A stretch of DNA of 64,000 bases from Candidatus Eiseniibacteriota bacterium (GCA_963783375.1 CAWANH010000029.1:1152001-1216000); one strand, 5' to 3'. Numbered from the stretch's first letter, positions 12,692 to 20,088 are shown. The notes: generated by a model from the sequence alone, not told the origin. Made by a program: numbers and translations.

Positions 12692-15600
12692 ATGGACGAG
12701 GCTCTCGGGCGGGAAGGCCGATCTTCTCCGGAGCCCTCCTCCGGGGCGGCGGGGGGAGACGGCGCCCGGGCGCGGGCGATCGCCGACCAGTTCGAGGTCG
12801 CCCTGGGCTGCCCCGATGCGGTGACCGCGGCCCTGGCCGGAATCCTGGCGGGGACCGGTACCCTGCCCACCGGGCGCGAGAAGACGCTCCTCGGCCTGGC
12901 TCCCCTGCTTCGGCGGCGCACCGGGGCGGTGGCCGCCGCGCTCTTCGACGGTCTGTCCTCCGCCCTGGACCGCCTCCCCGATCCCCGGCCGCTCCTTCTG
13001 GAACTTCTTCGCACCCGGGATCCCGAACTGCTTTCCCGCGCGCTCGCCCACACGGAACGCCTGGTCGCGGCGAAGGCCGTTCATCCGGACCGCCGACTGC
13101 TGGCCTTCTTCGCCGAGCGATTCGAGGAACGCGGCGGGCTTTGGGAGCGCCCCGAGACCCTGAATCGCGTGGCCGAACTGGTGGAATCCTCCGGCCCTTC
13201 TCCGCCCTGGACCGATTTGCTGACCGATCCCGCCGACCCCGGTAGCGCCCGGTTGGCCGCGCGAGCCCTCGACCGGCACGGGGAACCCGCCCCCCCCGGG
13301 GTCGCCCGGCGGATCCTCGGGGAGGTGGCCTACGCATTTCTCGCCCCCTACCTGGCCTACACCCGGGCCGGCCATGCCGATCTCCTGGCCCTGGTCCCCC
13401 GCCCCGGCGCCCCGCCGCCGGCGCTCGCCGCCCTCCGCCGGGCGGCCGAGCGATGCGGCGAGAGCGCCCTCCGGGACATCGTGGCCCGGTTGGGCTGGCC
13501 GGCCGTGAACCTGGGGCTCGAGGCGGGGCCGGTATGGGAGGTCTCGCTGGCGGGAGCCTTCCCGTACCTGATGTCCCCGGAAGAAGCGCCGCTCCTCGAA
13601 GCGGTGGGCGAGACCCGGAAACACGGCGAGGCGATCCTCGCGGTGGCTCACGGCGGAGCGCCCGACCCCGGACGGGAGGGGCCGGGAGCCGAGGACCCGG
13701 TGGCCCGCTTTCGGGCCATGAACCTGGTCCACGCCGAGCTTCTGGCCGAGATCCTCGACGTCTCCCCCCTCACCCCGGAGAAGGTGCGCCGGATCCTCGG
13801 TGGGATGGACCGGATCGTCGCCGATTTCGTCGGAGTCTTCGCCCGCCACGCCGAGGACGAGGCGGCGGCGCTCCCCGGTCTCTACGCCGCACTCAAGGGT
13901 CGGGTCGAGGCGGAGCTCACCCCCGAGTCCCGCCCCGCCCAGCTCTCTGCCGAACTCACCCGGCTGGTCCAGGCCTTCGAAGACCCCCAAAGCCTCGCCG
14001 AGGTTCGCACCCTCCACGGCCTCAAGCGCTACCTCCACCAGCGGGGCCTCCGCCTGGGGTTCCGCCTGGTCGAGGCCGGACGCGCCACCAACCGGAGCGT
14101 CCGGGTTCTGGTGCTTCGGCCCCGGCGGGAGCCGCCGTCCCCGGTCGTCCTTCGCTACGTGGATTTCGAGCCCGGGGACTACGCGCCGGACTCCGCCCCC
14201 CCGGTTCCCTATCCGGTTCGGGCCCTGGCCGAAGGGATTTCCCGGCAGCTCCTTGTGGGAACATTGGAGTTTCCTGACGTTAAAATATTTTGCTATGGCA
14301 ACGAGGTCCACTACTACCTCGCTTTCGGCACCCATCCCGCGTTCCTCCGGGTGGACTACGCGCCGCCGCTCCGGGGGGGCATGGTCGACCTCGAGTACTA
14401 CGGGGTGAGCAAGGTGGATCTGGGGGCGCATCCCGACCCCAGCCTGGCCGGTATCCGCCTCCTCCTCGAACGGCTCGATTTCGACGTCACCATCGACGCC
14501 ACCCGGGTCCATGCCCGCTACGACAAGGAGCGGGCGCTGGATCTCGGAGAGCTGTGCGAGCACGCCGAGGCCCTCCTCCGTCTCCTCCCCCACGTGATGG
14601 ACGTGGACTGGACGATCGGGTCGCTCCGGCTCTCGCCGGCGGCGCGGTGCGCGACCGCGGAGGCCTGGGCGGAGTTCTTCCTGCGCTGGGGGTCGCTTCC
14701 GGTCGAGCGCTTCCTCACCGACGACCGGGTGGGGATCACCACCGGGCGGGAGACGGGCCCGGCCGGAGACCGCGAAACGGTGTGGGACGGCCGGGGGCCC
14801 TACCGCGACCGGTACCGCCCCGCCCCCGCGGCCCGGGATTTCCTGCCGCTGGTGGAGAGCCTGGGGGCCGGGGGCCGGGCGATTGCCGCGGAACTGGAGT
14901 CGGCGGGGGGTGAACCGATGGGGCAACTCGCCCTGGAGCGGCTCGTGCTCCGCCCGCTCCACGAGGCGGCGGGAGAACCCTCCGCCGGGGCCACGCACTC
15001 CGGGAGGCGACCCGGCGGCCCGCCTCCCCACGAGGCCGAGCGATTCGCACACATCCTGGAGGGAGGCGTGGAGCCGGTCGCCGCCGCGGCGCGCGCGGCG
15101 GCCCTGGTCGCCCCGCTCACCCGAAGCCTCCGCTTCCGGACCACCGGGTCGGTGGAGGGTTTTGCCACCCAGCACGCGGTGGTTCCCCTTCGAGGGGCCC
15201 GCCTGGACGCACACGTGCTCCGCGATCCCTCGGGGCTGATCCGCCTCGCCTACTTCACCGGAGTCGGAAGAGACGGCCGGCGGAGGCTCGGGGGAGTGGG
15301 GTGGCCCGGCGAAGCCGGTCCGGAGGAGGGAACCGCGATCACCGGAGAAGGGACCGGCGCCGGCGATCCGGGGCTCGACGCCGCGCGCCTGGCCGCCCTC
15401 CTCCGGCGAAACAGCTACCCCGTGGTCGAGACCGGGGGGAGCGATTCGGAGGTGGAAGCCGAAGCCCGTGAAACGCTCGCCGCGGTCGGGCGCTCCGCCC
15501 ACCTCCCCCGTCCCCGACCCATCCCCGGAGAGCGATTGGTCACCGGGCTCCGCGCTTCCCCCGGCCGCGCGGTGGGGCGGGCGGTTCTCGATGCGGCGGG

Positions 15601-17835: not shown

Positions 17836-20088
17836 TCCGACGCGAGGATTCCCTCACCTATCACGCTGCCGGGCGCCCCGGAAAGATCGAGGTGCGGGGG
17901 ACCAAGCCCTGCCTCACCCCGCGCGAGATGCGGCTGGCTTACCTCCCCGGCGCGGCATTCCCTTCGGCGGAGATCGCCGAGACCCCGGCCGAGGTATTCC
18001 GCTACACCGCGCGCGGGAATCTGGTGGGGGTGATCACCAATGGATCCGCCGTCCCCGGCCTCGGCAACGTCGGCCCCGAGGCGGCCAAGCCCATGCTCGA
18101 GGGGATGGCGGTGCTGTTCAAGCGCCTGGCTGACATCGACGTTTTCGATCTCGAACTCGCGGTGGAGGACCCCGATCACTTCGTGGAGGTGGTGAAGGCG
18201 CTGGAGCCCACCTTCGGCGGGGTGAACCTGAAGGACATCCGCGCCCCCGAGGGCCTCATCCTCTTCGACCGGTTGAGCGAGGCCCTCCACATCCCGGTTT
18301 TCCACGAGAACCTCTACAGCTCGGCGGTGGTGGCGGGGGCGGCGCTGCTGAACGCTCTCGACCTGGTGGAGAAACGGATCGGGGAGATCCGGGTTGTGGT
18401 GTGCGGGGCGGGCACCATGGGGACCGGCTGCGTGCGGCTTTTCCTGCGCCTGGGGGTGCGGCCGGAGAACCTCCTGGTCTACGACCTCCACGGCCTCGTG
18501 CATCCGGCGCGCACCGATCTCCACGACTTCCAGCGTCTCTACGCCCGCGACCACGCCGCGCGCACCCTGGCGGAAGGACTTCGAGGCGCCGACGTGTTCC
18601 TCGGAGCCTCGGCCGCCGGAGTCCTGACCCCCGAGATGATCCGCTCCATGGGCCGCTATCCGGTGGTCTTCGCCCTGGCCACCCCGGAGCCGGAGATCGG
18701 GTACGAAGCGGCGCGCTCTAGCCGGAAGGACGTGATCGTGGCCACCAGCCTCGGCCAGGACCCGAACGCGGTGGTGGACCTGTTGAGCTTTCCCTACATC
18801 TTCCGCGGGGCACTGGACGCCGGGGCCACCCGTATCACCGAGGGCATGCTGCTCGCGGCCTCGCGCGCCCTGGCCGAACTGGCCCGGGAGGACGTGGTGG
18901 AGGAGGTGGAGCGGGCCTACGGCCACCCGCACTTCGTCTTCGGACCGGAATACCTTCTCCCCAAGGCCATCGATCCCCGGATCCTGGTGCGGGAATCGGC
19001 GGCGGTGGCCCGCCAGGCGGTGGAGGAAGGGGTGGCGCGCCACCCCCTGGCCGACGCCGCCTACCAGGAGAGCCTCGCCGTCCGCCTGGGAACCGGAAGG
19101 GAGACCCTGCGCGGGCTGATCCTGAAAGCCCGCCAGGAAAACCCGCGGGTGGTCTTTCCCGAGGGCACCAACGAGACCATTCTTCGCGCCGCGGGCATCC
19201 TGCTCGACGAGGGGATCGCCCGACCGATCCTGCTCGGCCGCGAGGACGAGGTGCGGGAGTCGATCCGCCGGCTCGGGCTCGACCTGGGCGGGGTCCAGGT
19301 GGTGGATCCGGCGAAGAGCGCGCGGGCCGAGATCTACGCGGAGGCCTACTTCCGCATGCGGAGGCCGGCGCGGGGTCATGCGGGAGGCGGCCCGCGAACG
19401 GCTGGAGCGCCGGGACGTGTTCGCGGCCATGATGCTCCACTCCGGGGACGCGGACATGATGGTGGCGGGGATCCTCGCCCATTACGCGGAGTCCCTCCGC
19501 ACCATCCTCGAGGTGATCGGGCCCGCGCCGGGGGTGAAGCGGATCGCCAGCCACTACCTGGTGCTCCTCCCCAAGGACGTCTACCTGCTGGCCGACTGCG
19601 CGGTGAACATCGACCCCGATGCCGACGAGCTGGCGGAGACCGCCCTCATCTCCGCCCGCATGGCCCGCTCGGTGGGGATCGAGCCGAGGGTGGCCATGCT
19701 CTCCTTCTCCAACTACGGGAGCGTCGACCATCCCTCCACCCTGAAGGTCCGCCGGGCGGTGGAGATCGCCCGGGAGCGGGAGCCGGGACTCATCATCGAC
19801 GGCGAGATGCAGATCGCCACCGCGGTAAACGGGGAACTCCGGCGCGAGCACTTCCCCTTCACCCGGCTGGAGAAGGACGCCAACGTGCTGGTCTTCCCCG
19901 ATCTCCAGTCCGGCAACCTCGCGCTCCAGGTGCTCCAGCACCTCGGGGAGGCGGTGCCGATCGGACCGGTCCTCATGGGCACGCGGCTCCCGGCCCACCT
20001 CCTCCAGTACGGCACCACGGTGGAGGAGGTGGTGAACCTGACCGCGGTGGGGGTAGTGGAGGCGGCGGCGGCGCGGCGCTCGGGGTAG
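17832..20088 (+). CDS. maeB: MaeB-type malic enzyme-phosphotransacetylase fusion with degenerate active site; frameshift at ~19365
   Basis: [43 protein letters not shown] domain ADCAVN, AMLSFSN, DGEMQ, ANVLVFP; ATGA overlap with upstream gene. Confidence 0.85.

Follow-up and report, generated by a model that had tools for sequence, protein, structure and literature searches.

Do two adjoining genes that resemble a phosphoenolpyruvate (PEP) synthase and a malic enzyme serve the malate-pyruvate-PEP route, or has the pair taken up another role? The question is raised by a 64,000-nucleotide stretch of a Candidatus Eiseniibacteriota bacterium genome (GCA_963783375.1, CAWANH010000029.1:1152001-1216000), hereafter the window, in which gene A, encoding a giant dikinase-like protein with a swivelling phosphohistidine domain, is followed by gene B, encoding a paralogue of the malic enzyme MaeB. 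The original prediction held that a ~1700-residue PEP-synthase-like protein of non-canonical domain order overlaps, through an ATGA, a full-length MaeB homologue with replaced catalytic residues, and that both partners have left the gluconeogenic role of MaeB and PpsA. All of this stands: the His domain of A precedes PPDK_N, the overlap lies at 17832-17835, the motifs EGKG, NLEDI and HDDQHG read EGMA, NLKDI and HENLYS in B, and the genome (G000) retains an ordinary MaeB with every catalytic residue and an ordinary intact PPDK. We tentatively favour, at slightly less than an even chance, a reading in which A would be a His-relay dikinase with a small-molecule acceptor and B a non-catalytic MaeB paralogue that would sense acyl-CoA and NAD(H) and regulate A as its partner.

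Conservation of the Gene Pair

A scan of GTDB genomes with B lists 60 loci, at least 32 of B type (one of which starts inside B) and 28 of ordinary malic-enzyme type. Gene A lies upstream of B in 30 of the 31 listed loci with upstream sequence, as compared with 0 of the 28 ordinary malic-enzyme loci of the same scan, and the record labels of the carriers name eight phyla (Eisenbacteria, Acidobacteriota, Bacteroidota, Desulfobacterota, Gemmatimonadota, Ignavibacteriota, Verrucomicrobiota, and Pseudomonadota). In the reverse test, metagenome loci were recruited by the A core alone. Among the best 80 of 127, B is the next gene after A in all 56 loci with room downstream, once 21 loci ending inside A and three with fewer than 120 nucleotides downstream are excluded; two loci are duplicates. 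The canonical combination K92/E134/D160 occurs in none of the 54 readable metagenome B genes. The gene pair and its substitutions are conserved among homologues; a pairing that is not conserved would have spoken against the original prediction. The exact four-nucleotide ATGA overlap is found in 50 of 87 pairs and a gap of at most 60 nucleotides in 77 of 87, and translational coupling of A and B is predicted from the sequence.

The distribution of A is patchy, with strong matches in 16 of 201 genomes of the window's phylum. A search of the flanks for a third conserved gene was negative, no family there being common to more than 12 loci. An oxaloacetate-decarboxylase-type cluster (nine loci, three arrangements) or a MaeA-type malic enzyme (four loci) directly adjoins 13 of 106 pairs, and a malate/lactate dehydrogenase gene adjoins the pair in L192. 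An ordinary MaeB is also present in nine of ten B-carrying genomes checked; in G171 and G140 its gene lies no more than ~10 kb from the pair. A canonical PpsA was not found in a search of G000.

The MaeB Paralogue Encoded by Gene B

Pfam analysis of B reports malic, Malic_M, and PTA_PTB domains, and the protein aligns over its full length with the Bdellovibrio (9KRU) and Escherichia coli MaeBs. Among 69 distinct full-length B sequences, to which the counts below refer, the catalytic Tyr Y37 (Bdellovibrio Y52) is kept in 68. The EGKG Lys, which we take to be catalytic, and E134, D135, and D160, presumably the three acidic metal ligands, have fared differently. The Lys is M, I, V, L, or A in all 69 (K in 12/12 ordinary MaeBs), E134 is K in 63 and E in none, D160 is N in 67 and D in none, and D135 is kept in 66 and replaced by G or H in three. 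N284, R307, N315, and N316 are all changed across B, and the 12 ordinary MaeBs are invariant at these positions. The Rossmann region is kept or more canonical (G192 in 69, G194 in 67, G197 in 68, D218 in 63, and R227 in 68). The NADP-specifying K250 of Bdellovibrio is Q in 66, a weak hint at NAD(H). For Bdellovibrio MaeB, PMC7902834 names the residues Y52, D150, and N300.

The residues of acetyl-CoA site 1, as defined in Bdellovibrio MaeB (PMC7902834; PMC12704298), are mostly retained in the PTA domain of B: R535 in 65, K538 as R or K in 62, R581 in 63, Q683 in 69, and N718 in 62, the phosphate/adenine residue N616 being also among those kept. The acyl pocket is altered, with Y721 replaced by L, M, or V in all 69, K722 never K (H or Q), and T614 kept in eight and mostly A. 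The idea of a metabolite sensor, put forward in the original prediction, fits the residue pattern of B, in which replacement has struck the catalytic residues and spared those of the acetyl-CoA and Rossmann sites. In a quick tree, 26 B rows fall on one side of a long branch and 11 ordinary MaeBs on the other (SH-aLRT 100), and conservation of the malic-enzyme domain reaches 72% in B as compared with 64% in the sampled ordinary MaeBs. B cannot be classed as a malic enzyme and is a MaeB paralogue under selection, with likely ligand sites.

Architecture of the Gene A Protein

The A protein comprises, in order, a helical repeat, a four-helix bundle, an acceptor-like domain, a His domain, a helical domain, and an ATP-grasp, and 21 full-length intact homologues span 1605-1728 residues. 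Pfam analysis reports PEP-utilizers (residues 978-1084, E 1.5e-8), then PPDK_N (E 2e-44), and no match in residues 1-930. Neither the PEP-utilizers_C barrel (PF02896) nor any carbohydrate-binding module (CBM) family is matched at E 0.1, and A stops after the ATP-grasp. Genes A and B, each split by one deposited frame break, were analysed as four pieces; these score far under the NCBIfam cut-offs for PpsA and PPDK (A: TIGR01418/NF005057) or MaeB.

A search of 1.84 billion proteins returned 136 matches to A, of which 96 representatives were aligned. The swivel motif, given as T/SxxGGxxxH in PMC12167813, reads TGGGILSH in A; its His1010 (codon 15719-15721) is present in 93 of the 96 representatives, and the position of the regulatory Thr, two residues before it, is Leu in 95. 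The ATP-grasp residues are kept likewise (K1356 in 93, the VRSS Arg in 94, the DIE Glu in 90, and the QxRP Gln and Arg in 89 and 92), and these conserved residues have counterparts in RPH and PEP synthase that serve as ATP and His residues there (PMC4844700). The LRGxRLRAxHQ motif is missing in most remote relatives. Among the latter, P0126, in which both the catalytic His (LSR) and the ATP lysine are gone, is likely a dead dikinase, and P0140 carries the module within a 4331-residue protein; P0135, P0136, P0138, and P0137 are further remote members.

AlphaFold2 (AF2) models of residues 25-945 (pLDDT 82.6) and 415-715 (pLDDT 82.2) were obtained. The first exhibits a HEAT-like solenoid, a four-helix bundle, and alpha/beta domains, with generic helical likenesses only: VIA comparison of the solenoid with a HEAT chain, a common arrangement, gives Z 10.6 (root-mean-square deviation (rmsd) 3.5, 153 residues aligned), and the bundle shows a generic likeness to FAT/vinculin-type bundles (Z ~10.5). 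Foldseek returns no match at E 0.001 for either segment, and the best VIA match of the core, the MotA C-terminal domain (Z 6.5, rmsd 3.5, 97 aligned), is within background, so that the core is assigned no fold. Profile searches of the PDB with the central regions report nothing credible. ESM Atlas searches give leads of score 0.77 or no match; one 0.77 row carries Rph_4th and is a lead only.

The Acceptor-Like Domain and a Family of ~870-Residue Proteins

In the putative acceptor domain, H449 is present in 95, H548 in 94, D611 in 96, K612 in 95, and D639 in 95 of the 96 representatives. As a test of a motif resemblance, 30 PEP-utilizers loci of four genomes were translated in six frames and searched with profiles of residues 330-500 and 500-670. 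The top matches outside A fall at corresponding positions in the C-terminal domain (C-domain) of ~870-residue proteins with PPDK_N and PEP-utilizers. At least 1392 sequences belong to this Desulfobacterota-type family; their automatic annotation is 'pyruvate, water dikinase', and their C-domain is covered by no Pfam family. HHalign analysis of the A middle domain with 120 of these relatives reports 88.4% probability (E 2.8e-6, 202 columns), as compared with 0.1-0.2% for four other A regions and a reversed control. The reciprocal single-sequence search is weak (best 10.5 bits, E 0.056), with A-family proteins making up 24 of the top 25 among 3859 sequences and no reversed decoy ranked. Residues H442, R446, H449, H548, and D639 of A align with residues kept in 117-120 of the 120 relatives. 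The two domains are probably homologous, and by analogy with RPH (an Arg/Glu pair) and BsPPS (Asp/His/His) the shared His/His/Asp core (H449/H548/D639) is likely the acceptor site.

The ~870-residue proteins share with A, at a remote level, the C-domain motifs (S/T)LHDxxRFxHE, GYH, and RQxD and also the absence of a TIM barrel, whereas their modules run ATP-grasp, His, C-domain, the reverse of the order in A. Their genes are not accompanied by a MaeB paralogue; five of the seven regions compared place them beside genes for TauE transporters, receiver domains, histidine kinases, and Usp. In a quick ATP-grasp tree of 46 rows, A, the Desulfobacterota (Desulfo) type, and PpsA form separate lineages with an unresolved base. 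A single clade of A and the Desulfo type is not rejected with the truncated Desulfo-type row L213 included (p-AU 0.61; 3e-6 with that row outside), which does not establish the clade; by hidden Markov model score, the ATP-grasp of A is nearer to PpsA (mean 195 bits) than to the Desulfo type (153).

Frame Breaks and Selection

Both genes carry a frame break in the deposited sequence (Table 1), whereas in the closest relative (L013, 98% identical in B) each is uninterrupted in a single frame. At 19363, contigs of three public runs are one base shorter, that of X1 being 99% identical to the window; at 16875, a contig of run X2, ~94% identical, is two bases shorter, and no near-identical contig spanning the break in A was found in the public runs. 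Compared with close relatives, B has a ratio of nonsynonymous to synonymous substitution rates (dN/dS, Nei-Gojobori) of 0.07-0.09 and A one of 0.18-0.39, and five further pairwise comparisons give 0.05-0.34; both genes are under purifying selection. Because the extra bases are missing from public contigs and dN/dS is low, both breaks are most likely assembly errors. That the two genes are decaying pseudogenes, as might be suspected from a frame switch in just 2 of ~77 other loci tested in the same assembly (two in 7.4 kb thus exceed background) and from the identity of just ~94% of the contig bridging the A break, is barely credible and largely refuted at the family level: the extra base in B is missing from three contigs, among them that of X1, neither gene is interrupted in the closest relative, and more than 70 intact homologues were recovered for each. 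The decay that the original prediction had considered, with confirmed frameshifts and dN/dS near 1, is not what is found.

Comparison With Known Systems

B has the malic-enzyme domain, hook, linker, and PTA arrangement of the clade 2 MaeBs (Bdellovibrio, PDB 6ZNG/9KRU; PMC7902834, PMC12704298; ~740 residues aligned, E 3e-205), with their catalytic Tyr and most acetyl-CoA site-1 residues. It differs from them in the catalytic Lys, two metal ligands, the substrate-side Asn/Arg, and the acyl pocket, and in being nearly always encoded behind A, an ordinary MaeB usually being retained elsewhere. A shares with PpsA and PPDK (TIGR01418, TIGR01828; PDB 8A8E, 2OLS) the ATP-grasp Lys, VRSS, DIE, QxRP, and swivel His motifs, but has no PEP/pyruvate TIM barrel, places the His before the ATP-grasp, has Leu for the regulatory Thr, and carries ~900 extra residues. 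The order acceptor, His, C-terminal ATP-grasp and the large size are those of GWD1 (PMC13553574). In contrast to the N-terminal CBM45 of GWD, A lacks a CBM and its N-terminus is modelled as a helical solenoid; A is also bacterial, has a partner gene, and has an acceptor domain predicted to be alpha/beta, whereas the GWD1 central domain is all-helical and U-shaped, and GWD is not among the listed fold matches. With RPH, HpeHI, and phenylphosphate synthase (PMC4844700, PMC12167813), A shares the ATP-grasp (E 2e-23 to RPH), the absence of the regulatory Thr, and an acceptor domain unrelated to the PpsA barrel, but its His domain is central (His1010 of ~1713) where that of RPH and HpeHI is C-terminal. 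The RIF-binding domain shows no sequence match to the A acceptor domain and is not among the listed fold matches.

A close logical precedent for regulation of A by B is the Thermus ADLP, a pseudo-alanine-dehydrogenase encoded beside its target gene; without the catalytic Lys, ADLP binds NAD(H) and exerts control over a CoA transferase (bioRxiv 10.1101/2025.10.31.685773). Like ADLP and the Thermus GdhA/APRTh system (glutamate dehydrogenase), B would be a dead paralogue ~45-50% identical to the active enzyme, has lost the catalytic Lys, forms a separate clade, and lies beside its presumed target. In contrast to these, B has a malic-enzyme and PTA scaffold with two possible ligand sites, and its presumed target is an orphan dikinase. 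The literature searched, which covers few subscription papers, was found to describe neither the A/B pair nor a dead malic enzyme nor what the ~870-residue family does; the acceptor domain and the combination of A and B are undescribed, their parts being of known kinds (swivel-His dikinase, pseudoenzyme regulator).

Proposed Mechanism and Alternatives

From residue patterns, linkage, and selection, we infer the activities, ligands, and contacts as follows. By analogy with PPDK, RPH, and GWD, the beta-phosphate of ATP would be transferred to His1010 with release of AMP and Pi, and the His domain would swivel to the central domain, where the H449/H548/D639 core and nearby Arg/Lys would bind an anionic acceptor other than TIM-barrel-bound pyruvate. 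Translational coupling would ensure that A and B are made together. B would still form the MaeB hexamer, and acyl-CoA occupancy would cause a large rotation of its malic-enzyme domain; the acetyl-CoA-driven 70-degree rotation of MaeB (PMC7902834) offers a ready output for such a switch. This movement would gate A and thereby make it responsive to the acetyl-CoA/redox state at the malate-oxaloacetate-pyruvate node. A single complex prediction of three chains (A 28-335, A 1088-1345, and B 1-410) scores 0.73, 0.77, and 0.72, unrelated partners 0.00 and 0.00, and a control with chain 1 replaced 0.71, and it is not used for or against A-B binding; an inter-protein coevolution analysis (58 pairs, Neff 46) reported scattered, lineage-driven pairs and was discarded.

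Several observations weigh against a sensor-regulated metabolite dikinase. The acyl pocket being altered, acetyl-CoA itself may not be the ligand of B. Conservation extends to the replacing residues of B (K134 63/69, N160 67/69, D316 67/69, alongside Y37), a pattern that suits a new active site no less than a dead one. The ~870-residue relatives sit in signalling and transport loci, which could mean a protein rather than a metabolite acceptor. Genome G064 has a B (L030:9998-12259) without detectable A, a same-strand MFS-like transporter gene separates A from B in G003 (L190:7149-8375), and no malate/oxaloacetate genes lie nearby in 93 of 106 loci.

Alternatively, B could be a re-purposed, probably metal-independent NAD-linked oxidoreductase acting in sequence with A on a non-malate substrate, with Lys134 replacing the metal or the lost Lys92, a cleft turned hydrophobic, and the PTA domain still regulating. 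Retention of Y37, K134, D135, E159 (59/69), GxGxxG, and D218/R227, the many new fixed residues that line the cleft, and dN/dS of 0.05-0.18 speak for this arrangement; we nevertheless regard it as unlikely, since the malate/nicotinamide-side N284, R307, N315, and N316 are all changed, K134 is S, A, or R in 6/69 and D135 G or H in 3/69, which is unusual for catalytic residues, and no pathway genes are conserved around the pair. If the neighbourhoods of the ~870-residue genes (receiver, histidine kinase, Usp, and TauE in L103, L104, L106, L107, and L109) are taken as a guide, A might instead be a protein phosphotransferase acting on B, an ordinary MaeB, a decarboxylase, or a receiver, and B might be its substrate, an adaptor, or a dummy subunit in hexamers formed jointly with MaeB. 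The HEAT-like scaffold of A and the co-occurrence of ordinary MaeB are consistent with this, but the characterised swivel-His dikinases described in PMC4844700, PMC12167813, and PMC13553574 target small molecules or glucan, no receiver gene is conserved beside A, and the His/Arg/Asp-rich core looks like a small-ligand site, so that we hold such a role to be distinctly unlikely. An alternative PEP synthase, in which the central domain of A would supply the pyruvate site and the pair would form a variant gluconeogenic unit, would account for the lack of a canonical PpsA in G000, the annotation of the ~870-residue relatives, and the malate/oxaloacetate genes at 13/106 loci. It appears highly improbable: A has no PEP-utilizers_C barrel, scores far under the PpsA cut-offs, and has no regulatory Thr, G000 has an intact PPDK, the relatives' annotations are automatic, and B cannot supply pyruvate through known chemistry.

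Beyond the favoured regulatory pairing of dikinase and sensor, it is possible, if doubtful, that A and the ~870-residue proteins represent a new dikinase acceptor-domain class, with a fold unmatched in the PDB and a substrate, metabolite or protein, new to dikinases, and that in the A/B branch the acyl-CoA-driven 70-degree rotation of MaeB now serves to switch a different enzyme, A, mechanically.

Features of the Locus and Its Surroundings

Table 1. Coordinates of genes A and B and of their parts, counted from the first base of the window
Feature	Position	Strand	Remarks
Gene A, giant swivel-His dikinase-like protein	12692..17835	+	~1713 residues across the break; start ATG 12692, stop TGA 17835
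A N-terminal HEAT/ARM-like helical solenoid	12764..13282	+	~residues 25-197; AF2 model
A four-helix bundle	13682..14080	+	~residues 331-463, continuing into TLHGLKRYLHQ helix; AF2 model, fold search
A putative phospho-acceptor domain	13979..14620	+	residues ~430-643
A swivel phosphohistidine domain	15623..15943	+	Pfam PF00391
A helical domain between His and ATP-grasp	15953..16726	+	carries LRGxRLRAxHQ
A C-terminal ATP-grasp	16730..17750	+	K1356, VRSS, DIEF, LQxRP motifs intact
Frame break in A	16873..16877	+	two extra bases in G run near 16875; missing from L013 and run X2 contig
Ribosome-binding site and stop/start overlap	17818..17835	+	AAGGAG 17818-17823, 8 nucleotides upstream; ATGA 17832-17835
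Gene B, MaeB paralogue	17832..20088	+	751 residues across the break; malic-enzyme then PTA domain; start ATG 17832, stop TAG 20088
B malic-enzyme domain	17832..19061	+	Y37, GxGxxG, D218, R227 kept
B replacements		+	K92M (18105-18107), E134K (18231-18233), D160N (18309-18311), N284T, R307L, N315V, N316D
B PTA domain	19116..20085	+	R510, R513, Y551, R556, N592, Q660, N695 kept (Bdellovibrio acetyl-CoA site 1)
Frame break in B	19363..19363	+	one extra base; missing from run X1, X2, X4 contigs and L013

Divergent from A, a signalling cluster common to a few related loci occupies 3247-12342 of the window (- strand, 5743-7002 on the + strand), with genes for an FHA protein, a HEAT-repeat Ser/Thr kinase, two PilT-like ATPases, an HD-GYP and PP2C fusion, and a second HD-GYP protein. 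On the + strand, a TauE/SafE transporter and DUF1634 pair (33601-35013), 13 kb from B, is probably unrelated, and a 912-residue open reading frame (ORF; 36556-39291, putative start) comprises FAD_binding_2 and Succ_DH_flav_C after ~300 residues without a Pfam match at 1e-10, possibly a fused L-aspartate oxidase/flavoprotein. Elsewhere in the genome, L194 (G000:C1:110000-123000) encodes three PPDK_N proteins (587, 1064, and 989 residues) without a His-domain match, one with a receiver and one with a nucleotidyltransferase domain. Their genes are interleaved with two glutamate-dehydrogenase-like genes, one split into two ORFs, and the locus may hold another dikinase-derived regulator beside a metabolic enzyme.

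In other genomes, the oxaloacetate-decarboxylase-type alpha/beta loci are L032, L033, L034, L039, L116, L117, L122, L173, and L187, with a biotin ligase in five. The B of G064 has Ala at K134, as one of the six in 69 without Lys there, and a Desulfo-type dikinase gene lies ~45 kb off on the same contig. Several ~870-residue genes occur per genome (G061, G064), with an invariant C-domain carrying GGAAD..RR.RR, and a sigma-54 gene is also among the neighbours at the five loci L103 to L109 named above, where the TauE genes are of TauE/SafE type. A 'PEP synthase' numbered beside two TauE genes rises together with them (PMC13490349) and may belong to this family.

Significance

PEP synthase and malic enzyme are the labels that A and B routinely, and wrongly, receive in annotation, and metabolic reconstructions thereby credit many uncultured soil and sediment bacteria with a malate-pyruvate-PEP route that is probably not catalysed by the pair. 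Few dikinase acceptor domains are known, and that of A links the conserved pair to more than 1000 unstudied proteins, the ~870-residue relatives occurring in sulfate reducers and syntrophs, some of them culturable. B would be the first malic-enzyme pseudoenzyme, none being found in the literature searched, and a natural test of the MaeB allosteric rotation wired to another protein. If a new acceptor class and a MaeB-derived switch are indeed combined here, the malate-oxaloacetate-pyruvate node of many uncultured bacteria would include a phosphorylation step and a control circuit that have so far gone unrecognised.

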